The notes below the pieces were generated by a model. The model had not been told where the DNA came from. It ran no database searches and saw only the letters and a list, made by a program, of their open reading frames with translations. 64,000 nucleotides of DNA from an uncultured Candidatus Saccharibacteria bacterium (GTDB taxonomy: Bacteria > Patescibacteriota > Minisyncoccia > Phycocordibacterales > CSBR16-119): contig CAYHDV010000002.1 in NCBI GenBank assembly GCA_964355515.1, positions 6,622 through 70,621 of the forward strand, given 5' to 3'. The stretch's first letter is position 1. Each line of letters starts with the position of its first letter. Both the position numbers and the translations under genes were made by a program. This document shows, piece by piece, positions 4,455 to 63,357 of the stretch.

Positions 4455-5756
4455 ATGGCAACAAAAAAAGCTACAAGTAAAAAAAAGGTTTCTGTAGGGA
4501 AACAAATACCACGAAAAAATAATTCTGAAACTAAAAAGTCAGGGGTTACATCCGTGGCTAAAAAATCAACAAAAAAACCAGCTCCAGTTAGAAAAAATAC
4601 TGTTACAAAAGTTAAAGAAAAGAAGACCGCAACACCTCCAATTAAAAAAGAAAAAAAAACCACTTCTGGAGTTACAAAAAATAAATCAGAAAAAAAACAA
4701 GACCAAGCATCTCTTCTGATAACAAAAGGTAAGAAAAGAGGTTTTATAACCTATGATGAAATTCTAAAAGAGTTTCCAACCATTGAAACGGATGTTGTTT
4801 TTCTTGATGATTTGTATAGCCAGTTTATCGATGCCGGAGTGGATGTTCTAGAAGGAGGGAACCTCCTCCAGCTAGAAGATGAAAATCCAAAGAAAAAAGT
4901 GAGGCTTGGTAGGGAAGATGCAAGTTATGATTCAATTCAAATTTATTTGAAAGAGATTGGGCAGTTTCCACTTATCAAAGCTGCTGAAGAGCGAAACCTT
5001 GCCCAAAGAATAGAAGCAGGGGACGAAGAAGCCAAAAACCTTCTTGCCAGGGCCAACCTGCGACTTGTGGTTTCTATTGCCAAAAAATATTCAAACAGAA
5101 GCTCTGACCTGACACTACTTGATCTTATCCAAGAGGGAAACTTGGGTCTTTTTAAGGCGGTAGAGAAATTTGATTGGACAAAAGGTTACAAATTCTCAAC
5201 TTATGCTACTTGGTGGATAAGACAGTCTATTACTCGAGCACTTGCTGATCAGTCTCGAACAATTCGAATCCCTGTTCACATGGTGGAGACTATTTCAAAA
5301 TATAAACAAATATATCGAAGACTTTCTCAGGACTTGGGGCGAGAACCACTTGCAGAAGAGGTGGCAACAGAGATGGGTGTAGATGTAGAAAAAATCCACA
5401 TCATCGAAAAAATCTCTCAAGATACTACCTCACTTGAAAAGCCGATCAACGATGATGAAGAGAAGTCAACTCTAGCTGAGTTTATTGCGGATGATAAAAT
5501 CTTGCGTCCTGATCAGGAGTCTGCACAGAGAATTCTCCACGATCAAATATTTGAAGTGTTAGATGAGCTCTCTCCAAAAGAAAGAAAAATTCTTGAGATG
5601 AGATATGGGCTTATAAATGGAGTTCAACATACGCTAGAAGAGGTAGGACAAGAATTCGGCGTTACTCGTGAGCGTATTCGTCAGATTGAGGCGAAGGTTC
5701 ATGAAAAGTTGAGGGGTCATGAGAAGATTGCGAGATTGCGGAATCATTTTGATTAA
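4455..5756 (+). CDS. rpoD: RNA polymerase sigma-70 factor RpoD with Lys-rich N-terminal extension
   Basis: Region 2.4 ([15 protein letters not shown]), region 3 (IRIPVHMVE) and region 4.2 HTH ([23 protein letters not shown]). First ~90 aa are a K/T/S-rich low-complexity tail. Confidence 0.92.
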
Positions 5757-5760
5757 AACC

Positions 5761-6110
5761 TGGTCATCCTGGTAGAAGATACTTGTCATCCTGAATTCAT
5801 TTCAGGATCTAAAGCCCTTTTAATCATCACACTCCGTTGTTTTCCCCGCGCAGGCGGGGATCTAAATAATATCTTTCTTTTTCCATCGCTGAAAAAGAAA
5901 CAAAAAAGCTAGACCTCTTCCAAACAAACTAAAAACAACCTACAAATTGCTGTGTCTCGCTAAGCGCTGCGCTACGAGCTCGACACGGGCACAATTTGTA
6001 GGTTGTTTTCTTAACGCTTGTTTGGAAAACGGTCAAAGATTTCAAGTTTTCAAAAACCGTGAATATTTTAAAAGTTAAAGCTCAAATGTCAAAAGGTGAC
6101 TTGTCTTTAT
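5761..6110 (+). repeat. Structured intergenic repeat element, copy A (family 1), with a 78-nt perfect nested hairpin at 5932..6009
   Basis: Blocks 5872..5925 and 6029..6095 are near-identical to 53237..53286 and 53391..53455, and in reverse complement to 13636..13680 and 13518..13556. The central hairpin has an 18-bp perfect stem. Confidence 0.8.
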
Positions 6111-6187: not shown

Positions 6188-6226
6188 TAAAAAAACCGTG
6201 TCGCAAACTGCAACACGGTTTTTATC
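6188..6226 (-). terminator. Rho-independent terminator for the 6243..6593 gene
   Basis: Hairpin ccgtgtcgcaaactgcaacacgg followed by a T-run on the minus strand. Confidence 0.6.
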
Positions 6227-6593: not shown

Positions 6594-6748
6594 TCTATAT
6601 TTTATTTGTTAAGTTTCCTATATTATATCATAATAAGTATCAATTTGTCAAGCAATACAAAAATTGTGAAAAAGCTTGCTATGAAGCTTTGGATTTGATT
6701 GGTACAATATATGTAGGTCTAATTATTAAAAATTAATTCTATAAATTT

Positions 6749-13035: not shown

Positions 13036-13299
13036 TTGGTACAATTAATCATTATGAGTCCATACTATACATATATCCTCAGGTGCAAAGACGGTACGCT
13101 ATACACAGGGATAGCCACCGACCTTCAAAGGAGATTGGATGAGCACAATAGGGAGGGAAAACTTGGTTCGAAGTACACTCGTGCCAGGCGTCCTGTCGAG
13201 CTTGTTTATTCAAAGAAATTTCCAGATAGGTCGAGCGCCACAAAAGAAGAGTTGAGGATAAAAAGGCTTACGAGAGAGGAGAAGCTGGATCTGATTTAG
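13036..13299 (+). CDS. GIY-YIG nuclease superfamily protein (YhbQ/UPF0213-like)
   Basis: YTYILRCKDGTLYTGIATDLQRRLDEHN, GIY-YIG core. Confidence 0.75.
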   Translation: MVQLIIMSPYYTYILRCKDGTLYTGIATDLQRRLDEHNREGKLGSKYTRARRPVELVYSKKFPDRSSATKEELRIKRLTREEKLDLI

Positions 13300-13356
13300 T
13301 TTTTTTATTTTCAAAAACTTTTCCTTTTTTCTTGGCAAAAAAAGAAGCAAAAAGCC

Positions 13357-13715
13357 AAGACACCTCACTTTTTACTAAAAACACCACAATTTTTCCTAAA
13401 GTCGCTAACCGGCTACGCCTTCAAGCGCTCCTTCTTAACGAAAAAATTATGTTGTTTTCTTACTGTAAAAAGCTCAAGTGTCAAAAACCACTCATCTAAC
13501 ACTTGCAAAACTTTCCGACACTTGAGCTTTAACTTTTAAAATATTCACGGTTTTTTTGATTAGTGCGAAGCTTTAGCGACAGCGATCAGCGTAGCGCCAA
13601 AAAAACCGTGATTTATTTTTTAGGTAAAGTGAGGTGTCTAGCTTTTTTGTTTCTTTTTCAGCAATGGAAAAAGAAAAGTATACTTCTTTAGATCCTGAAA
13701 TAAATTCAGGATGAC
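13357..13715 (-). repeat. Structured intergenic repeat element, copy B (family 1, inverted), bounded by 14-bp terminal inverted repeats; plus one GTCATCC hairpin
   Basis: Reverse complement of 13518..13556 and 13636..13680 matches copy A/C blocks. 12-bp perfect stem cacggttttttt/aaaaaaaccgtg at 13547..13610. TIR agacacctcacttt at 13357..13370 is inverted at 13626..13639. Hairpin gatcctgaaataaattcaggatgac at 13691..13715. Confidence 0.75.
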
Positions 13716-13823
13716 AGAATTTTTACTTCCAGTAATGAAAAAAATGATAGGAGGGTCAATCAGAATATTGACAAACAACTAAAAGACTTGCTTATTTAAA
13801 TTAAGCATGTTATACTTTTATTT

Positions 13824-14492
13824 ATGAGCGATTACAACAGAGGAGGAGATAGAGGGGGGAACAGAGGAGGTGGATTTGGTGGAAACCGTGGGGGAGGATT
13901 CGGTGGCGACAGAGGTGGAAACCGAAAGCCTTCTTTTGGTGGAGACCGACGAAGTGACCGAGGAGGATTCGGTGCCCCAACTATGCACAAAGCAAAGTGT
14001 GACGGTTGTGGAAACATGGCAGAATTGCCATTTAAACCAACTGGAGATAAGCCAGTATTCTGTAGTGCATGTTTTAGTGCCAAGAGAGAAGAATCTGGAG
14101 GCGGAGATCGACGTGATTCACGAGGAGGAGACAGAAAGCCTTCTTTTGGTGGAGACCGAAGAAATGACCGAGACCGACGACCAGCCGGAGGAGATGTAAG
14201 TGGATTGGCACAAAAAGTTGATGCACTTCATGCAAAAATGGACAAAATTCTAAAGTCCCTTAATCTTCCAACAGAAGATGCCCACGAATCTGAAACAGTA
14301 TTCCGAGCGGCAAAGGAACCGATGGCTCCAAAGAAAGCAAAAGTGAAGAATGTAAAAGACGGAGATTTAAAAAAAGCTATATCAAAAATTTCAGCTCCAA
14401 AAGTTGAACTTAAAAAAATAACAAAGAAAGTTGTTAAAAATGTAGCTGTAAAGAAATCAGCTGTAAAGAAAGTTGTAAAGAAAAAGAAATAA
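13824..14492 (+). CDS. RGG-repeat / zinc-ribbon / Lys-rich tail protein (putative nucleic-acid-binding)
   Basis: Repeated GGxRGG(G)FGG and KPSFGGDRR units flank a CxxC-x17-CxxC ribbon (CDGCG…FCSACF). C-terminal third is K/V-rich. Confidence 0.6.
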   Translation: MSDYNRGGDRGGNRGGGFGGNRGGGFGGDRGGNRKPSFGGDRRSDRGGFGAPTMHKAKCDGCGNMAELPFKPTGDKPVFCSACFSAKREESGGGDRRDSRGGDRKPSFGGDRRNDRDRRPAGGDVSGLAQKVDALHAKMDKILKSLNLPTEDAHESETVFRAAKEPMAPKKAKVKNVKDGDLKKAISKISAPKVELKKITKKVVKNVAVKKSAVKKVVKKKK

Positions 14493-20732: not shown

Positions 20733-20867
20733 AAAACACATCTATCTGATGTGTTTTTTAGTTTATCTTTTGGGGTCAGAGAGAAGATCGGCACCACAAG
20801 AGTATTTCCATTTTTAAATTCCTTAGCCTTGCTTACCTCCACCAACTTCACTACTCTAAATCATGTT

Positions 20868-20920
20868 CTGAGAGCCAGAGAGAAGATTCGAACTCCCGAC
20901 CTTCGCTTTACAAAAGTGTT
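20868..20920 (-). repeat. Duplicated 3' half (53 nt) of tRNA-Thr, 123 bp downstream of the intact gene
   Basis: 20868..20920 is identical to 20991..21043 except one base (T vs C). It covers the T-arm and acceptor 3' strand but lacks the D-arm/5' half. Confidence 0.85.
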
Positions 20921-20995
20921 TGGAATGCTATCCGTAGCATTCCTCACCTCCACCAACTTCGCTAATCTGCTCAAAATAAAAAATCCTATCCTGAG

Positions 20996-21068
20996 AGCCA
21001 GAGAGAAGATTCGAACTCCCGACCTTCGCTTTACAAAAGCGTTGCTCTACCAACTGAGCTACTCTGGC
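20996..21068 (-). tRNA. tRNA-Thr(UGU), 73 nt, CCA not encoded
   Basis: Minus-strand sequence GCCAGAG-TA-GCTC-AGTTGGTA-GAGC-A-ACGCT-TTTGTAA-AGCGA-AGGTC-GGGAG-TTCGAAT-CTTCT-CTCTGGC-T. It has a 7-bp acceptor, canonical D-arm, U33/A37, anticodon TGT and a 5-nt variable loop. Confidence 0.85.
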
Positions 21069-21137
21069 TCTCAAAATAGGATTTAGTTATTTCAGTTACT
21101 TAATCACTGTTTTATTTTATTTATTTTTAAACTTCTG

Positions 21138-23164: not shown

Positions 23165-23347
23165 TTAGCCCCGAACCAAAATGTTTATTATTAATAAAAC
23201 AATCTCTATATGAGATCATTCGACAGGGTCGATAATACCAGAGAAAGTCAGATTTTACAAGGAGAAATTGGGGTGGTTTTTCTTTTATTAAAATCTTTGT
23301 TTTTTTACTTTAAGACTAAAGACTGTGCAATCTTCATGTAATATACC

Positions 23348-23570
23348 CGTCATCCTGAATTTATTTCAGGATCTATTAAATATCAAAAAGATGCTGAAAC
23401 AAGTTCAGCATGACAAGCTCAAGTGTCAGAACCCCCTCAATCTCCCCCTTGAAAAGGGGGAGAGGGGCCCTAGTTCAAATAATCACAAAAGCTCCCAAAC
23501 TTGCGTCATTCCCGCGAACGCGGGAATCCAGAAAAAGAAAACAGCCTCGCGGATTCGCGAGGCTGTTTTA
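23348..23570. repeat. Cluster of hairpin repeats (GTCATCC-type hairpin, ~50-nt block shared with 32.58 kb, terminator hairpin)
   Basis: cgtcatcctgaatttatttcaggatc at 23348..23373. ttgcgtcattcccgcgaacgcgggaatccagaaa at 23502..23535 matches 32582..32616. aaacagcctcgcggattcgcgaggctgttt at 23539..23570. Confidence 0.75.
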
Positions 23571-30466: not shown

Positions 30467-32512
30467 ATGAATACCTTCGTACTAAAGAGCGAATATAGCC
30501 CTGCTGGAGATCAGCCAGAAGCCATCGCTGGCTTGGTAGATGGTCTGAAGAAGGGTTTGCGTAAGCAAACCCTTCTTGGAGTTACAGGGTCTGGGAAGAC
30601 CTATACAATTGCAAATGTTATAGAAAAAATCCAAAAGCCGACCCTCGTGATCGCTCACAACAAAACCCTCGCAGCTCAGCTTGCTCAGGAGTTCAAAGAA
30701 TTTTTCCCAGACAATGCAGTTCATTATTTCGTGTCCTATTACGACTACTACCAGCCAGAAGCCTACGTGCCGGTGACTGATACTTACATTGAAAAGGACG
30801 CATCTATCAACAAAGAGATAGACAGACTTCGACATGCGTCCACACAGTCTTTGCTTACAAGAAATGATGTGATCATTGTCGCTTCGGTATCCTGTATCTA
30901 TGGTCTGGGTTCCCCAAAAGAATATGAGAAACGTTTTATCTTTTTTAACAAAGACCAACAAATAAAAAGAATTGAACTTTTCAAGAAACTTATTGAGATG
31001 CAATACGAAAGAACAAATGCTGATTTGGAACCAGGCAAGTTTCGTGCTGTTGGAAATACTATAGAGATCATGCCAATTTCTTTTAAAAAAATGTATCGAC
31101 TAGAATTAGTGGGGAATCAAGTGGTAACACTAAAGGTTATAGACCCTGTGACATCGACCATTCTCGAAGAGCCAGATGAATTGTTTATTGCTCCTGCAAA
31201 GCACTTTATGACTAGTGCCGAAGGTAGAGATTCTGCTATTTCTTCAATAAAAGCAGAGCTAGATATTCATCTCAAAAAACTAGAAAAAGGTGGAAAAATT
31301 CTTGAAGCAGAAAGACTTAAGAGGAGAACCAATTATGACTTGGCGATGATACGAGAGGTTGGATATTGTTCTGGAATTGAAAATTACTCTAGGCATCTAT
31401 CAGGGAAAATGCCAGGCGAAGCACCAGATACTCTTTTGGAATATTTTCCTCATGACAAAAATGGTAATCCAGAGTTCCTCACTGTTATCGATGAGTCTCA
31501 TGTTACACTCCCTCAACTTCGGGCAATGTATGCAGGAGATCAGGCAAGAAAGGAGAACTTGGTTGAGTTTGGTTTCAGGCTACCTTCCGCAAAAGATAAT
31601 AGACCTCTTCAATATGAAGAGTTTACAAAAAGGGTTGGTGGTACGATATATGTTTCTGCCACACCCGGTGAGGTTGAAAGATCCGAGAAGACAGTTGAGC
31701 AGATTATCCGGCCAACAGGGCTTGTCGATCCAGAAATAATTATCCGGCCAATTGTCCCAGAAAAAGATGGATACAAAGGTCAGATTCAGGATTTTATTGA
31801 CGAAGCGGAAAAAGAAATAGTCAAAGGTGGTCGAGTACTTGCGACAACCCTTACAAAGAAAATGGCAGAGGATTTGTCGGAATATCTAAAAGAGAGAGAA
31901 ATAAAAGCGGCCTATATTCACAGCGATATCAAGACAATAGAGAGAATTCAAATTATTACAGAGTTTAGAAAAGGGAAGTTTGATATTCTTGTCGGGGTGA
32001 ATCTCCTTCGAGAGGGGCTTGATATGCCAGAAGTCACACTTATTGGTATTTTAGATGCGGACAAAGAAGGTTTTCTACGCTCAGAAACATCTCTTGTTCA
32101 GACAATTGGACGCGCAGCCAGAAATATAGATGGAAGGGTTATTCTCTATGCCGATAGGATGACTGGTTCTATGGAGAGAGCCATAGCTGAGACTAAGCGT
32201 CGTCGGGATATTCAGCTAGAGTACAACAAGAAAAATGGTATCACTCCAAAGACTATTATAAAAAGTATAAAAGATATTACAGAGGCGCTTCAGTCAGATC
32301 ATGAAAAAGCTGTGAATTTGGAACTAGAAACAGAATTTTCAAAAATCGAAAATCTCCCAACAAAAAAGAAAGAGCTTGAATTGAAAAAAATAATAAAAAG
32401 AAAAGAGAGCGATATGAACAAAGCTGTTGGAGAGCTAGACTTTGAAACAGCTGCGATTATACGAGATGAGCTTACTATTCTTCGTGGAATGCAGATGACT
32501 ACTAAGCTTTAA
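30467..32512 (+). CDS. uvrB: Excinuclease ABC subunit B
   Basis: GVTGSGKTYTIANVIEK Walker A, helicase motifs and a C-terminal UVR domain (AAIIRDELTILRG). Confidence 0.95.
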   Translation: MNTFVLKSEYSPAGDQPEAIAGLVDGLKKGLRKQTLLGVTGSGKTYTIANVIEKIQKPTLVIAHNKTLAAQLAQEFKEFFPDNAVHYFVSYYDYYQPEAYVPVTDTYIEKDASINKEIDRLRHASTQSLLTRNDVIIVASVSCIYGLGSPKEYEKRFIFFNKDQQIKRIELFKKLIEMQYERTNADLEPGKFRAVGNTIEIMPISFKKMYRLELVGNQVVTLKVIDPVTSTILEEPDELFIAPAKHFMTSAEGRDSAISSIKAELDIHLKKLEKGGKILEAERLKRRTNYDLAMIREVGYCSGIENYSRHLSGKMPGEAPDTLLEYFPHDKNGNPEFLTVIDESHVTLPQLRAMYAGDQARKENLVEFGFRLPSAKDNRPLQYEEFTKRVGGTIYVSATPGEVERSEKTVEQIIRPTGLVDPEIIIRPIVPEKDGYKGQIQDFIDEAEKEIVKGGRVLATTLTKKMAEDLSEYLKEREIKAAYIHSDIKTIERIQIITEFRKGKFDILVGVNLLREGLDMPEVTLIGILDADKEGFLRSETSLVQTIGRAARNIDGRVILYADRMTGSMERAIAETKRRRDIQLEYNKKNGITPKTIIKSIKDITEALQSDHEKAVNLELETEFSKIENLPTKKKELELKKIIKRKESDMNKAVGELDFETAAIIRDELTILRGMQMTTKL

Positions 32513-32514
32513 AG

Positions 32515-32828
32515 CTTGTGCCCCTCTCCTGGGGAGGAGTGAGGTTGGGGCGAGGTCGTAATCAATTACAAAGCTCTCAATCTTGCGTCTTTCCCGCGAA
32601 CGTGGGAATCCAGAAATAAACCACCCACATTCATAAAACGTACCGTCTTTGCGAGGCACGAAGCAATCCAGAGTGATGAATTTCTGGATTGCCACGTCGC
32701 CAAGCTCCTCGCAAAGACGCTAGGTGCATTGTCTCTGTATTGTAAACCCTGGATTCCCGTGTACACAGGAATGAAGAGTTGAGGGTTTAGTCATCAACCA
32801 AAAAACACCCTTTCGGGTGTTTTTTGGT
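32515..32828. repeat. Cluster of nested hairpin repeats downstream of uvrB, ending in a terminator
   Basis: 32582..32616 matches the ~50-nt block at 23502..23535. 13-bp inverted repeat ccgtctttgcgagg/cctcgcaaagacg at 32643..32720 encloses an inner hairpin. ggattcccgtgtacacaggaatg at 32748..32774. Terminator aaaaaacaccctttcgggtgtttttt at 32801..32828. Confidence 0.75.
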
Positions 32829-40403: not shown

Positions 40404-40808
40404 CTAATTTTCAGGACCTTCTATTCTAAAAGTAGCCTTGATACCTCTGTCACTGAAGAAATCTTCAGATGCTTTTTTGAGTTGTTCTTGTCCTCCCTTT
40501 AACCCTTTAAGTGAGGCAGCGAGTAATGAACCGGGTGTGATTAAATCAAGTTGCTCTATTGAGACCTTACCATCGACACCTTCAACACCACACTCAAATC
40601 CATAAAGCTTTGTCCAATCTTCTCCTTTTGTTTGAGCTTCTGGGCTGTTGAGGTCTATGGGCTCAGGGTCTGAAGTTATTGTCGTTTTGGTTGGGTTCTG
40701 TCTTAACTTGTCCCAGTAGATAACATCTACCCCTTTTTTAAATTGATTGATTGTCATGCGTGTACGTTTAATTTGTTCAGATATTACATTATTTACACAA
40801 AATGTCAA
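40404..40808 (-). CDS. Hypothetical protein (island gene 1); true start possibly at internal Met (MTINQF)
   Basis: First 17 codons lie within a ~60-nt block that is also found as 5'-UTR at 41799..41835. Confidence 0.45.
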   Translation of the reverse strand: MTFCVNNVISEQIKRTRMTINQFKKGVDVIYWDKLRQNPTKTTITSDPEPIDLNSPEAQTKGEDWTKLYGFECGVEGVDGKVSIEQLDLITPGSLLAASLKGLKGGQEQLKKASEDFFSDRGIKATFRIEGPEN

Positions 40809-40835
40809 AATGGAAGTGGAAGCCTTACTCTGGGC

Positions 40836-40876
40836 TTATTTAGCAAGTATTTAGCAAGGACAGTCCTAGCTAGTTA
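40836..40876. repeat. Palindromic island repeat (family 3, long form)
   Basis: tatttagcaagtatttagcaaggacagtcctagctagtta matches 42484..42523. Confidence 0.8.
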
Positions 40877-40953
40877 GAGGCTCCGAACTTGGGATGAAGT
40901 TCGAATAGAAATAATAAAAGGCTGAATGCATTTGCAGACAGCCTTTATTGAAG

Positions 40954-41160
40954 TTAGTCGTCATTTAAATACCTTTTGTTTCTCTGTTCTTGGGCAGAAT
41001 CAAACATTTTTTTACGATTATTACTGATATCAGTTCCCGTAATCATATCTGAACTTTTACCTGTCCCTAGGCACGAATGGCAATCAGTTGGGCTTGAATG
41101 ACCTCTACTAGTTTTAAAATGAATCTTTCCTGTTCCGTTGCAAGTTGTACATTTTCCCAT
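40954..41160 (-). CDS. Small DnaJ-type CxxCxGxG zinc-finger protein
   Basis: CTTCNGTGK…CHSCLGTGK. Confidence 0.55.
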   Translation of the reverse strand: MGKCTTCNGTGKIHFKTSRGHSSPTDCHSCLGTGKSSDMITGTDISNNRKKMFDSAQEQRNKRYLNDD

Positions 41161-41166
41161 ATATTT

Positions 41167-41769
41167 TTATTTACTTTTCATCACATTTGGGATTTGTGCC
41201 AAGAAATCTGGAACCCAGAAATCATCAAACCAGTACATTGTAGCGAGAACGGCTCTCTTTATTAAATCTCTTGCAGATTCCTCATCTAATACACCTTTAT
41301 GGTCTGCGTCTTCCAATAGTGTTGCCATAAGTTCAATAAAATATTGAATAGTATCTGTAAAGGTGGGTACTATACGTTGGCCCATATTTTTTACAGGTAC
41401 ATAGGTTATCATTTCATCGTCTATTGGGATTTTAAAATCAGAAAGTTGTTCTTTTTTAATGCCGATAGTGTTTGCAAGCGAAAGGATGTTCACAATCATT
41501 TTTAGAGTAGCAGTTTTTTGGATTAAGGGAATGTTTCCCAGTTTTTCATCAGGCTGAGCCATCCACTGTAAATTACGAACGCCTTTCTTTTCAAAAGGAA
41601 CTTCGTCATTAATTTTGTTGGCGGATTTTAAGATATGGAGTAACCCGTGATTTAAAGAGAAGATCTTTTTTCGTTCATCTGTTAGGCTTCCAATAACAGG
41701 GTAATTTTCTTCGTTGAAAATGTACCTTGAGTTTACATACTCAAAAGCATCGGTGAGGTTTTTTATCAT
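41167..41769 (-). CDS. Hypothetical protein (island gene)
   Basis: 200-aa ORF, 7 bp upstream of the zinc-finger ORF. Confidence 0.45.
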   Translation of the reverse strand: MIKNLTDAFEYVNSRYIFNEENYPVIGSLTDERKKIFSLNHGLLHILKSANKINDEVPFEKKGVRNLQWMAQPDEKLGNIPLIQKTATLKMIVNILSLANTIGIKKEQLSDFKIPIDDEMITYVPVKNMGQRIVPTFTDTIQYFIELMATLLEDADHKGVLDEESARDLIKRAVLATMYWFDDFWVPDFLAQIPNVMKSK

Positions 41770-41978
41770 TGTTTGTACTAATTTAATTTACTCAAATACT
41801 ACATTATTTACACGAAATATCAAAGTATGTTCGAACTTCTAAGTACGGTAATAAAAAATAACCTTACAAAATAAGGCTATTTTTTGAGGCTCCCACTATT
41901 GGATACGTTTAGAACTCTTAATTGGAGTGGTATTAAGAGTGATTTACATTTTAGTGGACTACTAGAACTTAGTAGTAG

Positions 41979-42389
41979 TTATTCAAAGTAATCGCTGTCT
42001 ACTTTTTTGACTTGATATGTGGCAACAATACTAACACCTAAATTAAATTCAATCATTAATTTTGCCAGTTCTTTACCGTTTATAAGTACTATTTCCATAG
42101 ATGACCTATTCCTCTCAATTGTCTCTCTTGCTTGTTTTGTATATTCAGAAGTAGTAATAAAAACACCCTTATTTGCACCTCGACTAGACATTGATCCAAT
42201 AAAATTACGCAACTCAACATCTCCAACACTGTTTTCCCAACGTTTTGCTTGTATATAAATTTTACTCAAACCAAGTCTGTCTTCACTAATAATTCCGTCT
42301 ATTCCACCATCTCCCGATTTACCGATAACAACTCCAGCGTCTTTTAGTGATCCGCCATAACCCATTGAGGTTAATAACTTTACAACCAA
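41979..42389 (-). pseudogene. Mrr-like restriction endonuclease catalytic domain, N-terminally truncated at a palindromic repeat
   Basis: Mrr_cat motifs (GKSGDGGIDGI…IYIQAKRW…VELRNFIGSM). The reading frame extends upstream (…NEILTEELLERVKLISPSDFEYLVV) to a stop that abuts repeat 42457..42483. There is no ATG start and no Mrr_N domain. Confidence 0.65.
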
Positions 42390-42456
42390 ATACTCAAAAT
42401 CACTTGGCGAAATTAATTTAACTCGTTCAAGTAGTTCTTCGGTAAGAATTTCATTT

Positions 42457-42523
42457 AACTAGCGAGGACTGTCCTAGCTAGTTATATTTAGCAAGTATTT
42501 ACCAAGGACAGTCCTAGCTAGTT
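42457..42523. repeat. Two adjacent palindromic island repeats (short form 42457..42483, long form 42484..42523)
   Basis: aactagcgaggactgtcctagctagtt, then tatatttagcaagtatttaccaaggacagtcctagctagtt. Confidence 0.85.
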
Positions 42524-42539
42524 ATGCTTGAGGCATCTC

Positions 42540-43484
42540 CTAGCCACCATAAAAATACTTTTTAAACATCGCATACCCACGTTGAAACCTCTGTTCATCA
42601 TTCCGTTCTACACCCACCCACATACTTCGGAACGCTGGACGAATATATTGTAACTCGATGCGGTTTTGGAGATTCGCGTCGATAGGACCCTCGTATTGAT
42701 CGAGGATTTTATCAAGTACATTTTGTCCGTAATGCAAGAGCCACCTAAATTCATCTGCGGGATCACCGTACTCTCGATCTCCAAAATCAATGATCTTGAC
42801 TTGCTTTTCAGTAGCGTCCCACAATACGTTATCCATCTTCAGATCGCCGTGCTTGAGTACTGATTTGAATTCGTCGTTGAGTGTCGCTCGCAGATTTGCC
42901 AGGTATTGCAAGGTTGTTTCTTGCTCATCCTGGCTTAATCGAGGTAAAGCGAAGGTTTTAACATTTTCTTCAAGTGTACGGAATGTTTGTTCTGGATCGG
43001 ATCGCCTCACATTATATTTCTCAATAATATCGAGAGGTGTGGCATGTAATTGAGACAAAAAAGAAGCTATCTGATGTATTGCAGTATCCTTTTCGTCTTC
43101 GGGTAATTTGTTGAGCATTTCAGCACTCAAAGGGTCACCATGTATATATTCGTAAGACCCAAATGATCCATCATCAGCTACGTATGTATATTCGGGTATT
43201 TGAACTCCGTCAATATGTTGATTCAAGTACGTTAGTAGACGAGCTTCATCAAGTAACGATTCGTGGGGTGCGTTCGCTTTTGGGAGTCGATACACCAACT
43301 TGTTGTCGAGGATAATAATTTCATGGTCTGAGCCACTCACAATATATTCCGCTTTATCGTAACTAATGTTCGGTTCGTGTTGCTTGATTTTTTCTAAGAG
43401 TATTGTTGTTCTCAATGACTCTTCAGTTCTCTTTTTTTCTGATCTGTCCATATACGTTGATAGTATAGCAAAAAGAAAAGCCAA
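42540..43484 (-). CDS. Aminoglycoside/small-molecule phosphotransferase (APH/ChoK kinase-like fold)
   Basis: HGDLKMDNVLWD catalytic loop and IDFGD metal-binding motif. Confidence 0.75.
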   Translation of the reverse strand: MAFLFAILSTYMDRSEKKRTEESLRTTILLEKIKQHEPNISYDKAEYIVSGSDHEIIILDNKLVYRLPKANAPHESLLDEARLLTYLNQHIDGVQIPEYTYVADDGSFGSYEYIHGDPLSAEMLNKLPEDEKDTAIHQIASFLSQLHATPLDIIEKYNVRRSDPEQTFRTLEENVKTFALPRLSQDEQETTLQYLANLRATLNDEFKSVLKHGDLKMDNVLWDATEKQVKIIDFGDREYGDPADEFRWLLHYGQNVLDKILDQYEGPIDANLQNRIELQYIRPAFRSMWVGVERNDEQRFQRGYAMFKKYFYGG

Positions 43485-43666
43485 GCAATTTCTTACTTGA
43501 CTATTCTTTATAAAAGCTCCCCCTAGTGGACGCGTTCAGAACTCTCAACTGGGTTCAAATTAAAAGAGATATTGAGTTTTCTAAGATTTTTGAAAGGTTT
43601 CCAATGATAGTACTTCAGAAATAAACAAAAAGAAAACCCACCGAAGTGGGTCTCACTTGGTGGGCT

Positions 43667-43693
43667 TAACTAGCGAGAACTGTCCTAGCTAGT
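43667..43693. repeat. Palindromic island repeat (short form)
   Basis: aactagcgagaactgtcctagctagtt. Confidence 0.85.
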
Positions 43694-43817
43694 TATTGTT
43701 GCCCCAACTGGCGGAGGATGTTAGGACTTATTTGATTACCTATGGGGGTGGCATACCCCAATACCCCGCCATAAAACCGGAGTCCCAAAAAGTAAGTGTC
43801 TAGACGATTGGGTCCTA

Positions 43818-44822
43818 CTAACTAAATCTGAATTTCCAATAATCGACTTTACTTTTAAAGCTAATAAATAAATTAATCAAACAAACTACTATTCTAGGCA
43901 TTACTCGATCAATTAAAAAATATATTATTACTAACATGCTAGCTAAAAATAGTTGGTTATCGCTATAATTTTTAAAGAAAAAAAGAATTTTTGAATGAGA
44001 AAGTGCCATATAATCAATTATAAAAAATATCACAAGAATAACCGAAATAAATAATAATGCATGGAAAGATATTATATAATCAGAACCAAGTAATTTAAAT
44101 TTTTGATTATCAACAATAGGAATAAGGTCTTTTTCAGTGTACTTATCTTGTCGAAATAAAAGAAAAAAATTATCCCTGTCTATTTCGAGAGTAGAATCTA
44201 CCCACAACTTCCCGCCAATTTTTTTACCAGTTAGAGATAAGATATCCCATAGGCATTTAAGTATCACTATAATTAACTTGATCGTAGTCTCTTTAAAGAA
44301 AATTTTAGTTTTTAAGAAAATAAGACCCCTGAGTTTTGTGGTGTCTATGTGTAAATTATAGATATAATCCACTAGTTCTCTGAGAAAAATATTTTTATTT
44401 GTTTGAGTATCAAAAATCAATTTAGATTTAACATTTAATACAAATCTTTCATCTTCTCTTAAATCTACTGGTTGCCAAGATTTTTCACTTTCTTTAAGTG
44501 ATTCTTCAGTAGGAGATCCAGTATCATCCGGATTGTAGATAATATGATTATCGAGCAAATATTTACTTGCTTTTGAAATAAAAATAAATAAAGGTGCTTT
44601 ATATTCACTATCAATATTTTTATGGTAAAAACCGACCTTAATAAGAACAACACTGTCCGGTTTACCTTCCTTGGTTATTGCAGGTTTAAATTTTGATTTA
44701 TAAGAATAAGCCTTAACAATACTAAATCCAGATACCCCAGGATGTTCATTCCAAGGTATCCTATCTTCATTTTCAACAATTGTAAGTAAGTCGAGAAAAG
44801 ACTTATTATTAGGGATTTCCAT
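43818..44822 (-). CDS. Hypothetical protein with C-terminal TM helices (island gene)
   Basis: 334-aa, very AT-rich ORF. Confidence 0.45.
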   Translation of the reverse strand: MEIPNNKSFLDLLTIVENEDRIPWNEHPGVSGFSIVKAYSYKSKFKPAITKEGKPDSVVLIKVGFYHKNIDSEYKAPLFIFISKASKYLLDNHIIYNPDDTGSPTEESLKESEKSWQPVDLREDERFVLNVKSKLIFDTQTNKNIFLRELVDYIYNLHIDTTKLRGLIFLKTKIFFKETTIKLIIVILKCLWDILSLTGKKIGGKLWVDSTLEIDRDNFFLLFRQDKYTEKDLIPIVDNQKFKLLGSDYIISFHALLFISVILVIFFIIDYMALSHSKILFFFKNYSDNQLFLASMLVIIYFLIDRVMPRIVVCLINLFISFKSKVDYWKFRFS

Positions 44823-44953
44823 AATAAAGCAAATATAACATAAATAACTAGCGAGGACTAACTAGCGAGGACTGTCCTAGCTAGTCCTAATAAAGCAAAT
44901 ATAACATAAATAACTAGCGAGGACTAACTAGCGAGGACTGTCCTAGCTAGTCC
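44823..44953. repeat. Tandem 66-bp duplication (x2), each unit carrying two palindromic-repeat halves
   Basis: taataaagcaaatataacataaataactagcgaggactaactagcgaggactgtcctagctagtcc repeated at 44822..44887 and 44888..44953, abutting the start codon of the 43818..44822 gene. Confidence 0.85.
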
Positions 44954-45213
44954 TGACCTAATGTTTCAGAGCGAACAGCTTTTTCAATTGCAAAAAATTG
45001 TGAGGCCTCTGATGGTTTTCCGATTGACTCAAAAATTATATTTCTTGTTCCGATCTCACGGATGAGAATTTTTACACCTGTTCTTTCCTTGTCGTCAGGT
45101 CTGATATCTTTTGGTAATGCAATAAGATCATCAAAAAGATTTTCTGCAAAATCCAATAGCCATACTTTCGCACCATGTGAGGTGAAAAACTCTTCTCTTT
45201 TCATTTTATTCAA
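44947..45213 (-). CDS. Hypothetical protein
   Basis: 88-aa ORF. Confidence 0.35.
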   Translation of the reverse strand: MNKMKREEFFTSHGAKVWLLDFAENLFDDLIALPKDIRPDDKERTGVKILIREIGTRNIIFESIGKPSEASQFFAIEKAVRSETLGQD

Positions 45214-45488
45214 TTTTAGTTAAACACTTTTTCTGAATGCTAACACAGTATAAAATACTTGTAAAGTTAGTAGAATCTTAGTGCCGCCAACACTTAAGCC
45301 TAAATCTTTTATGGTCACTTTAACTAGGAAGGATTGTTCTTTTAATATACTAACGTTTATTAAAATCACCTTGATTTATAAAACCGCAAGGATTGTTTTT
45401 TCTAATTAAAAATAAGAGTGGCTACTTTTTTAAAATTTGACATATTTATATTTGTAATATACAATAATAAAAAATAGAATATTGAAAT

Positions 45489-46199
45489 ATGGATAAATAT
45501 TGTGAAAATCCGATCGAAAATGAACTCTTTCAAAGAGCCCATCGGTTGATGGAAGAAACAGGGCAGAGTATTCGCAACCATGAGAAAAACTTTTATAGCT
45601 TGGCTGTGCATGAGTTTATAAAAGAAAAATATTCTTATGGCATAGGTCATCTAAAAAGGCAGATTATAATGCCAATGCCTAAAGAAGAATTAGGCAAATG
45701 CCTTAGCAGATGTGAATTAAAAAAGTATTATTCAAGTCTAACTGATCATTCTTGGCCTAAAGATTCTTTTTATCAATACAGCTTTCATGAATGTAATGGT
45801 GAATCGCTAGACTATTTGATGTATGGTTATGCTATATGTGGAGATGAGTTGATTCCTTGCGCATTTTTTATGAATTTCCTTATGACATGGAAAATTCCTG
45901 AAATTCCTAATCAACTTTTCCCTGATGAATATGCCATTGATTATATGGGCTTGAATTCTGGGAAAAATCCTGAGTGTTATATAGGAGTCAGCGTTCCTAA
46001 AGAACAGACAGAAGAATGGCTGATCTCAGCAAGTAAAACTGCTTTCCCATTGGAATATCTGGTTCAAAAACAAAATGAAGAATCAAAAGAAAATTCCGAA
46101 TGGGAGAGAGAAATATTGATGGGTCCACAAGAAATGATTGGATGTCTTTCCGGGGATAATAAAGATTTGGCGATAAAATGGCTCATGAAAAATCAATAA
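45489..46199 (+). CDS. Hypothetical Cys-containing protein (island gene)
   Basis: 236-aa ORF. A sigma70-like promoter (ttgaca-17-tatacaat) lies at ~45437..45472. Confidence 0.45.
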   Translation: MDKYCENPIENELFQRAHRLMEETGQSIRNHEKNFYSLAVHEFIKEKYSYGIGHLKRQIIMPMPKEELGKCLSRCELKKYYSSLTDHSWPKDSFYQYSFHECNGESLDYLMYGYAICGDELIPCAFFMNFLMTWKIPEIPNQLFPDEYAIDYMGLNSGKNPECYIGVSVPKEQTEEWLISASKTAFPLEYLVQKQNEESKENSEWEREILMGPQEMIGCLSGDNKDLAIKWLMKNQ

Positions 46200-46209
46200 T
46201 TAATAAGCT

Positions 46210-46539
46210 ATGGGAAATATAAATAAAAAATTGAAAGCAATTTATTTTCATTGGGTTATAAATTATGCTGGGCCTCCACCCAGATCCCTTTCTTCTACTT
46301 TTGAGGATTACCTCTACTTAGAGAGGTATACTTTTCTTGGAGATGATCGATGGCTTGAAAAAGTTCTCGCTGAATGTAATTTGGTTGATAAGGTTGAATT
46401 TGATGAGCAAATGGTTTTAATCGAAGAACAATTCAATACTTATTCGGACCAGCAACAGAAGAAGCGTGATAAAAGGATGGCTAAAGCATGGAAAACCCAT
46501 TTGTCTAATTGTGATAAAGAGGGGATTCTTCCTTTTTAA
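46210..46539 (+). CDS. Hypothetical protein
   Basis: 109-aa ORF, 10 bp after the previous gene, with a terminator-like hairpin at 46566..46598. Confidence 0.4.
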   Translation: MGNINKKLKAIYFHWVINYAGPPPRSLSSTFEDYLYLERYTFLGDDRWLEKVLAECNLVDKVEFDEQMVLIEEQFNTYSDQQQKKRDKRMAKAWKTHLSNCDKEGILPF

Positions 46540-46721
46540 CACTTTGTTCTTTTTAATTAGATTATCAAAAAATCCCCAAACATTTTGGGGATTTTTTTTA
46601 TAAATTAAAAGAAACACTGAGCTCTCTAAGATTTTTGAGATGTTTCAGATGGTGACACCTCAGAACTAATAAAAAATCTCCCGACCACTGTGTGTGAGGG
46701 AGATTTTCTAGGAAATACTTT

Positions 46722-47270: not shown

Positions 47271-47850
47271 CACATTTTCCTAATGTTTCCAAAAGGGGTG
47301 GACTATATCATATCCAGTCATCATTTCTGATGCGATGGACCGAGGCGCTTCGACCACGCTTTTCGTGGGCTACTCCCTTGTGGGATAGTCTCTGAACCTT
47401 CAATTGGATTTCTCCAAAAGCTTGGCTGCTGATTACCCACAGCATTACCTGTTTGGGCTTCCAGACAATTCACCTCGTTTTCAACCTACATTTCTATAGG
47501 AAGCTGCGTTACACCGTCGTGCACTTCAGCATGACAATTTGCACAAAGTAAGACACATTTGTCTAGTTCTTTTTGTACTTTTATCCATGCTCTTGTAACA
47601 CCTCTTGCAGAAATTCCAAAAGATTTTTTGGAAGGATCGATATGATGGAAGTTTAATGCCCTTGATGATTTTTTATAACCACAAATGACACATACACCTC
47701 CTTTATATTCGATCGATTTCGTCATGAGAAGTTTCCTTCTTTTGACAACTGCTTTTTTAAGGTATTCTGCACGATCAGCATATGTTCTTTTTTCTTTGCT
47801 TGGCATATACACTGTATTCTACCATGCTTAGAAAAAGGGAACGTGAGTTC
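47271..47850 (-). ncRNA. Group I self-splicing intron (580 nt) with embedded HNH ORF
   Basis: Conserved core elements on the minus strand: GGTTCAGAGACTA (P7 5' strand/R element) and GATATGATATAGTCCACC (S element/P7 3' strand). The intron ends in G before the 3' exon and the 5' exon ends in U. Confidence 0.75.
47486..47812 (-). CDS. Intron-encoded HNH homing endonuclease
   Basis: CVICG…NFHHIDPSKK…LLCANCHAEVHDG, an HNH zinc-finger nuclease motif. Lies entirely inside the group I intron. Confidence 0.8.
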   Translation of the reverse strand: MYMPSKEKRTYADRAEYLKKAVVKRRKLLMTKSIEYKGGVCVICGYKKSSRALNFHHIDPSKKSFGISARGVTRAWIKVQKELDKCVLLCANCHAEVHDGVTQLPIEM

Positions 47851-52636: not shown

Positions 52637-53209
52637 ATGTTTTTAATTACAGGACTTGGTAATCCAGGAGAAGAATATATTAAGACTAGACACAATGTTG
52701 GGTTCTTGTTGTTGGATAAAATTGCCGGAGATGTTTCTTGGCAAAAAGATAAATATGCAGATGCGGAGTATTGGCAGGGGGATTTTGAAGGGTCTACTAC
52801 AATCTTTCTAAAGCCTCTGACTTTTATGAACTTATCAGGAAAGTCCGTGAAGGAGTTTATGAAGAAAGATGGTATTGATATGAATCGATTTGTAGTGATA
52901 CATGATGATATTGATTTACCAATAGGGTCATTTAAAATTTCTTATGATAGAGGTTCAGGCGGACACAATGGTATAAAATCCATAATCTCTGATCTAGAAG
53001 ACAATGCATTTCTTCGGATAAGAATTGGAATTGCTCCGGTAGATGAAGAGGGTATCACTCACAGACCAGAAGACACTGCAAATTTCGTGTTGAAAGAATT
53101 TTCGAAAGGGGATTTGGAAAAAGTTTTTGCACTTGCGCCGCGCATTCGCGCGGCGCTCCAAACCTTTATGGAGTTTGGTAGGGAAGTTATGATGAATAAA
53201 TTTAATTAG
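52637..53209 (+). CDS. pth: Peptidyl-tRNA hydrolase
   Basis: MFLITGLGNPGEEYIKTRHNVGF. Confidence 0.9.
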   Translation: MFLITGLGNPGEEYIKTRHNVGFLLLDKIAGDVSWQKDKYADAEYWQGDFEGSTTIFLKPLTFMNLSGKSVKEFMKKDGIDMNRFVVIHDDIDLPIGSFKISYDRGSGGHNGIKSIISDLEDNAFLRIRIGIAPVDEEGITHRPEDTANFVLKEFSKGDLEKVFALAPRIRAALQTFMEFGREVMMNKFN

Positions 53210-53224
53210 CTTTTTGTTTTTTTT

Positions 53225-53480
53225 GTTAAAAATTATTTTCTTTTTCCATCGCTGAAAAAGAAACAAAAAAGCTAGACCTCTTCCAAAATATCTAAAAAAT
53301 AGATACATTCTCGGTGCTACGCTAAGCGCTATCGCTACGAGCTACGCACTATTCGAGAATGTATCTATTTTTCTTAACGATATTTTAGAAAACGGTCAAA
53401 GATTTCAAGTTTTAAAAAACCGTGAATATTTTAAAAGTTAAAGCTCAAGTGTCGTAAGATTTTGCAAGTGATCAAATATC
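53225..53480 (+). repeat. Structured intergenic repeat element, copy C (family 1), with a 76-nt perfect hairpin at 53296..53371
   Basis: Blocks 53237..53286 and 53391..53455 match copy A. The hairpin stem sequence differs from copy A but stays perfectly paired, and the loop core cgctaagcgct…cgctacgagct is conserved. Confidence 0.8.
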
Positions 53481-63148: not shown

Positions 63149-63204
63149 AAAAAACACCAGAGAAATCTGGTGTTTTTTGTATGGGGAAATCTGAGAGTTC
63201 ATCT

Positions 63205-63357
63205 TTTTTGTCATTCCCGCATGTTCGGGAACCCAGAACACCTCAATATTCTAATTTTTTGTCCTCCCTGCGTAGGCGGTACTTCAAAATACCTTAATAT
63301 TCTAATCTTGTGTCATCCCTGCGTAGGCAGGGATCCAGAGTATCTAGATATTCTAAA
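63205..63357. repeat. Three tandem ~51-bp repeats, each a GTCATYCC-type hairpin plus the conserved tail YYAATATTCTAA
   Basis: Units 63205..63255, 63256..63306 and 63307..63357. Confidence 0.8.

Follow-up and report, generated by a model that had tools for sequence, protein, structure and literature searches.

A lineage-restricted palindromic intergenic repeat in a Candidate Phyla Radiation bacterium, with a possible short hairpin RNA product

A repeated, hairpin-forming intergenic element was studied in a 64,000-nucleotide (nt) stretch of DNA, here called the window, which covers positions 6,622 to 70,621 of contig CAYHDV010000002.1 (GenBank assembly GCA_964355515.1). One copy of the element lies behind rpoD, another behind pth, and a pair lies between a small GIY-YIG gene and the gene of a zinc-ribbon/RGG protein. 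A preliminary description, made from the sequence alone, had proposed a structured element in three copies that could be a non-coding RNA or a miniature inverted-repeat transposable element (MITE). The analysis covered the extent of the repeated unit, its fold on either strand and its distribution.

Judging by its sequence, the host is an uncultured bacterium of the Candidate Phyla Radiation (CPR) that resembles Paceibacteria or Nomurabacteria. Its closest RpoD matches, at 85-88%, belong to metagenome-assembled genomes labelled Paceibacteria or Nomurabacteria. The window belongs to a metagenome contig of 151.5 kb (ENA ERZ4201063 NODE_43). The GC content of the window is 34-40%, and its GC skew is positive and steady throughout. 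Loci used for comparison carry L labels: L084 is the same contig including DNA upstream of the window, and L004, L005, L009, L180, L181 and L182 are relatives. The strand on which the element was first proposed is called the reader's strand, and its complement the opposite strand.

Copies of the element

Two sequence blocks recur in the window far beyond expectation. Block 1 (TTCCATYGCTGAAAAAGAAACAAAAAAGCTAGAC) and block 2 (AACCGTGAATATTTTAAAAGTTAAAGCTCAA) each occur three times at no more than one mismatch, against zero occurrences expected from shuffles, and the recurring exact blocks are 31-34 nt long. The recurrence reported earlier is therefore real, but the number of copies was not three: five are present in about 80 kb of contig, as units of 170-230 nt, named A, B1, B2, C and D (Table 1). 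They lie on both strands, as the variable orientation in the preliminary description had implied. Extrapolation from five copies in about 80 kb suggests dozens of copies per genome. The regions of A, B and C fold far below the energy of shuffled sequence (z -5 to -8). No conserved open reading frame (ORF) was found in the copies by direct reading, in line with the lack of coding capacity noted before.

The limits of the copies had to be redrawn. Copy A had been placed at 5761-6110, but the homologous unit covers 5869-6097; identity between A and C falls to about 40% on either side of this interval and of 53232-53460, and 5761-5868 holds two different small palindromes. Copy B had been taken for one element bounded by 14-bp terminal inverted repeats. 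It is actually two separate copies, B1 and B2, which stand tail to tail, convergent in the reader's orientation and divergent in the RNA sense. The 14-bp inverted repeat (AGACACCTCACTTT) does exist, as a conserved stretch inside the unit; B1 and B2 contain it once each, and it is also found in D.

Structure and compensatory change

The anatomy of the element was read on the opposite strand. In the long form (A and C) the promoter-like block 2 is followed by a small 5' hairpin, a 123-nt hairpin, UAGCUUUUUUG at the U-run and P1, a 10-bp U/A hairpin. From its foot (GACC/GGUC) the 123-nt hairpin leads through an outer stem of 14 bp to an asymmetric internal loop with GUUAA opposite A, and on through a G·U-closed inner stem of 20 bp to an AGC-rich apex of 40 nt, in which direct reading of copy C finds five UAGC motifs. 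In the short form (B1 and D) block 2 is the 5' arm of one long imperfect palindrome that runs from GACAC to GUGUC; its core, CACGGU7G-apex-CA7CCGUG, is followed by AUUUAUUUUUU and then by P1. The 3' halves of the two forms are collinear, and the forms are therefore variants of one unit. The stem cacggttttttt, which had been presented as a third version of the same stem, belongs to the shorter form B1.

At its simplest the element is an imperfect hairpin, about 125 nt long, in which the foot GAC(C/A)...G(G/U)GUC and the loop CGUUAAG/UAG are conserved and the stems and apex are variable. At its 3' end a U-run lies past the hairpin and is followed by the short U/A-rich hairpin P1. Conserved sequence reaches beyond the GACAC-GTGTC palindrome in all copies, through P1 and, in the long form, block 2.

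Comparison of A with C indicates that pairing is kept while sequence changes. Their 123-nt hairpins are only 73% identical, against 93.5% for the flanks (p = 5e-5). Of the 48 predicted pairs, 35 are the same in both copies and 11 differ on both sides; the two with a one-sided change have become G·U, and no pair is lost. Compensation had been claimed in the preliminary description and is borne out by these 11 pairs, and the inner helix, described below, extends the pattern to a second species. The companion statement that the stems "differ completely" was too strong, given the 73% identity and the 35 unchanged pairs.

A covariance model, R1, was built from A and C only. It retrieves B1, D and B2 as well as a homologue in L009, its one match among 80 related genomes. 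In L009 the foot (GACC/GGUC) is retained, as are the loop GCGUUAAG/UAG, the U-run and a hairpin like P1; the stems and the apex differ. The loop core at the apex, once considered the key conserved feature, does not hold that place: the apex of L009 is wholly different, and it is the foot and the internal loop that are kept instead.

The inner helix was compared over 17 positions, with pairs counted outward from the conserved internal loop. Standard pairs occupy 17/17 positions in each of A, C and L009 and 16/17 in B2, or 67 of 68 in sum. Any two of these four copies differ by 5-9 two-sided changes and by only 0-1 one-sided changes, and all four conserve the internal loop CGUUAAG/UAG together with its closing G·U pair. 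P1 shows the same behavior on a smaller scale. It exists in three differing, fully paired versions (UUUCUUUUUC/GAAAAAGAAA, CCUACUUUUCU/AGAAAAGUAGG and UUACUUUUUU/AAAAAAGUGA), and both copy D and L009 have a hairpin at the P1 position whose sequence is unlike that of copy A. MAFFT alignments of the six copies mis-register the arms, and the pairs of the inner helix were counted from the internal loop instead.

Strand of the constrained form

The structural constraint is not the same on the two strands. The opposite strand has the lower minimum free energy in 6/6 copies, with a gap of 10-23 kcal/mol. Much of this gap is due to composition, the opposite strand being rich in G+U, but the excess over dinucleotide-type shuffles is also larger on that strand in every copy, by 4-10 kcal/mol. 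The minimum-energy structures of the five local copies contain 36 G·U pairs on the opposite strand and 5 on the reader's strand, and those of L009 contain 5 and 0. On the reader's strand the closing G·U of the inner helix would turn into an A·C mismatch, and the hairpin of B2, on the minus strand, holds via 11 G·U pairs. Mismatches in the units are tolerated only where they read as G·U on this one strand.

A replication-linked mutation bias is an unlikely cause of this asymmetry, because the copies face both ways in a window of uniform GC skew. The asymmetry implies that it is one strand of the hairpin, in one sense, that is of importance or that mutates, and the constrained form would then be RNA or single-stranded DNA rather than a double-stranded cruciform. 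Altogether there is good evidence that the structural constraint on the element is strand-specific. The DNA cruciform that had been offered as an option is disfavored by this one-strand bias, and the strand first implied for the element gives way to its complement, which is favored by the G·U pairs, the excess folding energy and the layout of the promoter-like site and U-run.

Insertion and distribution

Relatives provided empty sites for two of the loci. In L004, whose RpoD is 85% identical, the bidirectional terminator found here at 6189-6223 comes 5 nt after the stop codon of rpoD, without the tract that holds copy A. In L005 (RpoD 88%) the distance from the GIY-YIG stop codon to the next ATG is 64 nt, with a homologous promoter, versus 524 nt here; the extra tract of the B site lies past the GIY-YIG gene and ahead of the next gene's promoter. 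The element is missing from the corresponding spacers in L004, L005, L181 and L182, and two relatives in the 90% RpoD cluster have short spacers with no element. At the C site the comparison is with L180, which is 94.8% identical over 4.26 kb. Homology ends just past the pth stop codon, a few bases before copy C (window 53209-53232 versus L180 4254-4280). Downstream of pth, L180 carries different genes (acetyltransferase, isochorismatase and lycopene cyclase). No empty site could be defined for D, the gene upstream of rpoB being a different one in relatives.

Independent assemblies contain the element too. The A array reappears in a 98% identical contig of another sample, and this contig too ends in block 1. 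Logan contigs of the same organism terminate inside block 1 or block 2, as is expected of a dispersed repeat. Searches by BLASTN and the covariance model through 1.27 Mb around rpoD in 80 related species found no other copy save L009. Filled and empty sites, along with a patchy occurrence in several copies, are the mark of a mobile or recombining repeat and not of a conserved regulatory RNA, and there is good evidence that the element was inserted recently. The mobility proposed at the outset, or at least a recent insertion, is supported by empty sites, patchiness and assembly breaks; the part of the case that rested on terminal inverted repeats fails, and the strict label "MITE" is unproven. 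TTAA(G/A) occurs at both edges of the 416-nt tract at the A site, which is a composite of several modules. Neither a REP-associated tyrosine transposase (RAYT; REP, repetitive extragenic palindromic) nor a Y1 transposase was seen among the Pfam-annotated genes within about 80 kb.

The copies adjoin core genes. Pfam confirmed the names rpoD and pth for the genes ahead of A and C. The order given for these copies and genes was right, but "right after the stop codons" was not exact: the gap is 112 nt for A and 22 nt for C. Native terminators remain beside both. Copy D has a 71-aa gene on one side and the rpoB promoter on the other.

Promoter- and terminator-like features

On the opposite strand, block 2 reads (TT/AC/CC)GACA, 16 nt, TAAAAT, a sigma-70-like motif found by consensus scan. 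The first two bases of the TTGACA of copy A lie at the edge of the conserved unit, and copy D also has this promoter-like sequence. Host promoters identified by reading show the same architecture, with TTGACA-17-TATACT at rpoB and TTGCTT-17-TATACT at the zinc-ribbon gene. The putative start, about 7 nt past TAAAAT, is CACGG. The long hairpin of A and C lies entirely past this start; in B1 and D the hairpin opens with it and is succeeded at once by the U-run. U-rich sequence follows the hairpin in every copy. The layout fits a putative short hairpin RNA of about 75 nt in the short form or about 160 nt in the long form.

Neighboring palindromes and mosaic arrays

Small palindromes adjoin the element in A, B1, D and L009. 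Those beside it are the variants GTCATCCTGAA...TTCAGGATC and CCCCGCGCAGGCGGGG, and the element is not flanked by them on both sides. The dRS3 consensus of Neisseria, ATTCCC-N8-GGGAAT, has four matches in the window at no more than one mismatch versus 0.19 expected. For the neisserial intergenic mosaic element (NIME) arrays that are based on dRS3, PMC1797815 states that no case was known outside Neisseria. The likeness to the neisserial elements is probably convergent, and common descent is very unlikely.

The small hairpins form a family with conserved ends (GTCAT...ATC) and variable centers, also present at about 2730-2860 of L084, and a related form occurs in another species (L044 20774-20859). 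Other intergenic mosaic arrays of hairpin modules lie at 32512-32795, 23340-23570 and 63204-63356. The arrays contain three tandem 51-nt units, each with a small palindrome, and at 32644-32719 there is a 13-bp stem with a structured loop of 50 nt.

Table 1. Coordinates of the copies, their parts, the accompanying palindromes and the neighboring genes. Positions are those of the window unless a locus is named.
Feature	Position	Strand	Details
Copy A, long form	5869..6097	-	limits from fall in A/C identity; blocks; fold
Long hairpin of copy A	5912..6034	-	model R1 136.5 bits
P1 hairpin of copy A	5874..5900		TTTCTTTTTC, 7-nt loop, GAAAAAGAAA
Sigma-70-like promoter, copy A	6065..6092	-	TTGACA-16-TAAAAT, 11/12 consensus positions
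Extra tract at A site, absent from L004	5757..6172		416 nt: two small palindromes, copy A, 75 nt more
Copy C, long form	53232..53460	-	layout as A; A/C identity, fold
Long hairpin of copy C	53275-53397	-	
P1 hairpin of copy C	53237-53263	-	
Promoter-like site, copy C	53428-53455	-	ACGACA-16-TAAAAT, 9/12
Copy B1, short form	13508..13686	+	model R1 41.7 bits, E 2e-8
Hairpin of copy B1	13546-13610	+	CACGGU7G...CA7CCGUG
P1 hairpin of copy B1	13650-13676	+	
Palindrome of copy B1	13517 to 13638	+	GACAC (13517) to GUGUC (13638)
Promoter-like site, copy B1	13515-13542	+	CCGACA-16-TAAAAT, 9/12
Copy B2, degenerate	13314..13482	-	65% identity to B1; model R1 35.1 bits, E 2e-6
Extra tract at B site, absent from L005	13300..13785		B2, B1, palindrome 13691-13715, about 70 nt more
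Copy D, short form	L084 2529-2710		4.5 kb upstream of window, same contig; model R1 39.6 bits
Homologue in another species	L009 665-804		model R1 31.3 bits, E 2.6e-5
Small palindrome GTCATCCTGAA-N5-TTCAGGATC	5785..5809	+	4 matches versus 0 expected
Further copies of GTCATCCTGAA-N5-TTCAGGATC	13691-13715; 23349-23373; 23390-23414	-; +; -	
Second small palindrome beside copy A	5844-5859		
dRS3-fitting palindromes	23508-23527; 32590-32609; 32753-32772; 63213-63232		
rpoD	4455-5756	+	5' neighbor of copy A; Pfam-supported name
116-aa membrane-protein gene			convergent with rpoD; other neighbor of copy A
pth	52637-53209	+	5' neighbor of copy C; Pfam-supported name
90-aa gene			convergent with pth; other neighbor of copy C
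Small GIY-YIG gene	13036-13299	+	left neighbor of copies B2/B1
Zinc-ribbon/RGG protein gene	13824-14492	+	right neighbor of copies B2/B1
rpoB leader	L084 2943-3162; L004 1085-1329; L009 805-1021; L013 224-490		L084 stretch just upstream of window

Discussion

The element is a further example of a familiar kind of bacterial mini-repeat rather than a new type of system. The reading put forward here is that it is a lineage-restricted palindromic intergenic repeat, similar to MITEs, to enterobacterial repetitive intergenic consensus (ERIC) sequences and to Correia elements, which promotes its own short hairpin RNA and has local effects; we find this reading about as easy to believe as to doubt. 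Transcription would run along the opposite strand. A and C would drive it from a promoter of their own, and in B1 and D it would start at such a promoter or come by read-through out of the gene upstream. The resulting hairpin RNA would be short, with its end at either the U-run or P1, and its effects would be mainly local: termination or insulation between neighbors, possibly the donation of a promoter, and service as a substrate for recombination. A role as a trans-acting regulator is not part of the proposal.

Several results weigh against this reading. On the side of expression, we infer both transcription and its strand from sequence features, and some of these features are poor. The terminator scan calls none of the hairpins, whose stems are A/U-rich and whose loops are large. 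C, B1 and D have a poor -35 hexamer. Block 2 is missing from L009 and B2, where a weak TAAGAA is all that resembles a -10. The promoter-like hexamers of the short form stand within the 5' arm of its palindrome; a transcript that started there could not contain the outer pairing, yet the outer pairing is preserved. On the side of constraint, there are six copies in total, several with common ancestry, and the wobble-pair counts (36 versus 5) are not independent, with ancestry shared between B1 and D and partly between A and C. A single-stranded DNA intermediate would yield the same strand asymmetry as RNA. On the side of mobility, no target-site duplication could be defined for B, C or D, no strict terminal inverted repeats were found, and no transposase, recombinase or reverse transcriptase is present among the Pfam-annotated genes of the roughly 80 kb of window and flanks.

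One alternative, which seems unlikely to us, is a foldback element that acts only as DNA and moves or recombines either in the form of single-stranded DNA or through a site-specific recombinase whose gene lies elsewhere in the genome. A hairpin-recognizing enzyme of the IS200/IS605 or RAYT type would be a candidate, as would one of the Piv/IS110 type, to which the enzyme acting on the dRS3 of Neisseria belongs. The promoter- and terminator-like features would then be by-products of A/T-rich palindromic sequence, and the short form, one long imperfect palindrome with the "promoter" within its arms, fits that description. Tolerance of G·T on one strand is also expected of a single-stranded DNA substrate, although repair of the palindrome alone would not favor G·T on one strand. 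The element always stands in mosaic arrays with small palindromes, the dRS3 matches among them, and neisserial arrays have been proposed as recombinase substrates (PMC1797815). The synteny break falls exactly at copy C in a relative that is about 95% identical. Yet about 80 kb of DNA contains no transposase, recombinase, reverse transcriptase or RAYT that could do the work, and no duplication or cleavage motif could be defined. The copies also take both orientations with respect to replication, which is unusual for movers that use the lagging-strand template, though five copies are too few to judge by.

Another alternative, which we consider unlikely, treats the copies as paralogous genes for a true trans-acting small RNA. 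Each would have its promoter, a hairpin body and a terminator, and the copies would be retained because the RNA acts in regulation or in protein binding. In this case the G·U-closed internal loop and the (U)AGC motifs of the apex would be binding sites. The promoter-like site, hairpin and U-run do stand in the correct order on the G·U-bearing strand, but L009 and B2 are without a good promoter and the terminator scan was negative. The loop CGUUAAG/UAG and its closing G·U are kept in A, C, B2 and L009, covariation reaches a second species, and the apex of C carries its five UAGC motifs; in L009, however, the apex, AGC motifs included, is not conserved. There are about five assembly-breaking copies per 80 kb, and their absence from the syntenic sites of the closest relatives and from about 80 genomes near rpoD fits an invader better than a conserved regulator. 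The variable arms are complementary to nothing in the window, and the element has no Rfam match.

Chance similarity or an assembly artefact (A/T-rich low complexity or chimeric joins) has a negligible probability: the genome, with a GC content of 36-40%, is A/T-rich and the blocks are partly homopolymer-rich, but this explanation is refuted by the recurrence of exact 31-34-nt blocks against zero expected and by the independent assembly of the same array in another sample at 98% identity, besides the fold z of -5 to -8 and the retrieval of the remaining copies and the other-species homologue by the covariance model.

The proposed self-promoted repeat can be compared with several known systems. 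ERIC sequences, also called intergenic repeat units (IRU), are enterobacterial imperfect palindromes of about 127 bp. Like them, the element is a non-coding imperfect palindrome of about 125 nt that lies between genes, often in transcribed regions, in either orientation; both exist with and without internal extra segments, and both fold as a long RNA hairpin. The two are unlike in sequence and belong to hosts of different phyla. The arms here diverge strongly within one genome while the flanks are about 94% identical, and a promoter-like block and a second small hairpin belong to the unit. The effect of ERIC on a transcript depends on its orientation (PMC3049150).

Correia repeat enclosed elements (CREE) of Neisseria are likewise small palindromic intergenic repeats with full-length and internally shortened forms, and the TTGACA of copy A stands at the edge of its unit. 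CREE have conserved terminal inverted repeats, a TA target duplication and a site for integration host factor, none of which could be shown for the element. The arms are the conserved part of CREE and the variable part of the element. Promoters can arise at the ends of CREE, and their hairpin transcripts are bound or cut by RNase III (PMC2649163, PMC1797815).

NIMEs resemble the loci described here as intergenic arrays of different modules separated by 20-25-bp palindromes with conserved ends and variable centers, and four palindromes of the window fit the dRS3 consensus itself. The repeat sequence (RS) units of NIMEs, however, are not known for hairpin covariation, and no dRS3-specific recombinase (Piv/IS110-like) was seen in about 80 kb. 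BOX elements of Streptococcus pneumoniae are modular and intergenic, with conserved ends, a variable middle, stable hairpins and a known or suspected influence on neighboring genes (PMC3049150); BOX varies the copy number of boxB, whereas the element varies the stem sequence itself. ERIC, CREE, the RS units of NIMEs and BOX all differ from the element in one respect, which is that here the arms are variable while the flanks, the foot and the internal loop are conserved.

The bidirectional terminators of the host share with the element an inner stem between an A-run and a U-run (for example AAAAAGCCCCGCGCC...GGCGCGGGGCTTTTT), and A and C lie between convergent genes. The stems of the element are A/U-rich and 18-20 bp long, however, with a structured apex of 40 nt, and the consensus scan was negative. 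With MITEs the element shares small size, lack of coding capacity, dispersal in both orientations, and filled and empty sites. It cannot be classed as a strict MITE, because terminal repeats, a target-site duplication and a partner transposase could not be shown.

Database searches did not place the element in a known family. The Rfam search called for in the preliminary description was run and no family matches: only tRNA and the group I intron pass the threshold in the window, and permissive scans of three loci stayed at chance level. The exact patterns of block 1, block 2 and AGACACCTCACTTT-N2-3-CTAAAAA have no match in one genome per GTDB species, nor in JGI metagenomes or IMG/VR, and BLASTN against phage and plasmid records found no match. 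Among 80 related loci, long hairpins with AGC-rich apices included nothing homologous, and a motif search for TAAGAAA with a paired arm found L009 alone. Full-text search of the literature found no description of interspersed palindromic repeats in CPR/Patescibacteria.

A number of specific identities were tried and rejected. 6S RNA occurs in one copy, as a long hairpin whose large central bubble imitates an open promoter; the element is multi-copy, with an internal loop of just 5 nt versus 1 nt, and permissive Rfam scans gave no 6S match. A REPIN consists of two conserved REP arms in inverted orientation around a variable spacer, plus a RAYT gene. The pattern here is the opposite, with variable arms and conserved flanks and loop, and no Y1 transposase was seen. 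A retron non-coding RNA was rejected since no reverse transcriptase is nearby, and an integron attC site since there is no cassette array. The variable arms do not look like guides or spacers: they have no other match in the window, and their 15-16-mer matches in IMG/VR are at chance level and do not extend past the A-runs. A type I toxin-antitoxin system was rejected because no small ORF is conserved. An ATG in the loop of P1 opens peptides of 7-16 aa that differ between copies, and this ATG is missing in D. Nor is the element linked to the GIY-YIG gene, which L005 and L182 have without it.

CPR/Patescibacteria genomes are small and compact, and here spacers grew from about 50-65 nt to about 500 nt via arrays of hairpin modules. 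If these modules carry working promoters or terminators, transcription of core genes would be rewired, as rpoD, rpoB and pth adjoin copies. The repeats break assemblies at predictable places, which matters for the binning and closing of such genomes. The compensation together with the one-strand wobble bias makes the element a convenient case for the question of RNA versus single-stranded DNA constraint. A bolder form of the proposal, improbable in our view, is a mobile small-RNA gene with a self-promoted hairpin of about 75-160 nt, of which a protein of the host or of the element itself would recognize the loop CGUUAAG/UAG and the foot while leaving the double-stranded arms free to vary. If it were true, it would be a system that shapes transcription boundaries and recombination in tiny genomes and, with the dRS3-like palindromes, a NIME-like mosaic system in CPR, the first outside Neisseria.

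Other features of the contig

Between the rpoB promoter and the start codon lies a 5' leader of about 200 nt that is conserved in several Paceibacteria (Table 1) and contains the conserved stretch ...TAGCCTGATTGAG.... It may be a cis-regulatory RNA for the RNA polymerase operon. At the zinc-ribbon/RGG gene (window 13790-13826) the -10 hexamer TATACT lies just 7 nt ahead of the ATG, as it does in the L005 homologue, and this position suggests that the mRNA may be leaderless or nearly so.

The interval 40767-46676 holds many hypothetical genes, an Mrr-like nuclease gene and repeated palindromic boxes (AACTAGCGAGGACTGTCCTAGCTAGTT and variants). Its repeats include a perfect 66-nt tandem duplication at 44822-44953 and others of 75 nt and 43 nt. 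The interval could be an island or a set of operator sites.

A group I intron at 47279-47560 (minus strand) scores 55.5 bits, which exceeds the Rfam threshold, and a 106-108-aa ORF that overlaps or adjoins it (47486-47812, minus strand) has a faint HNH match. A tRNA-Thr (UGU) lies at 20995-21068 (minus strand); a partial duplicate of its 3' half, 94% identical, is found at 20858-20920, 123 nt off, and more short repeats occur near it, in the region 20820-21095.

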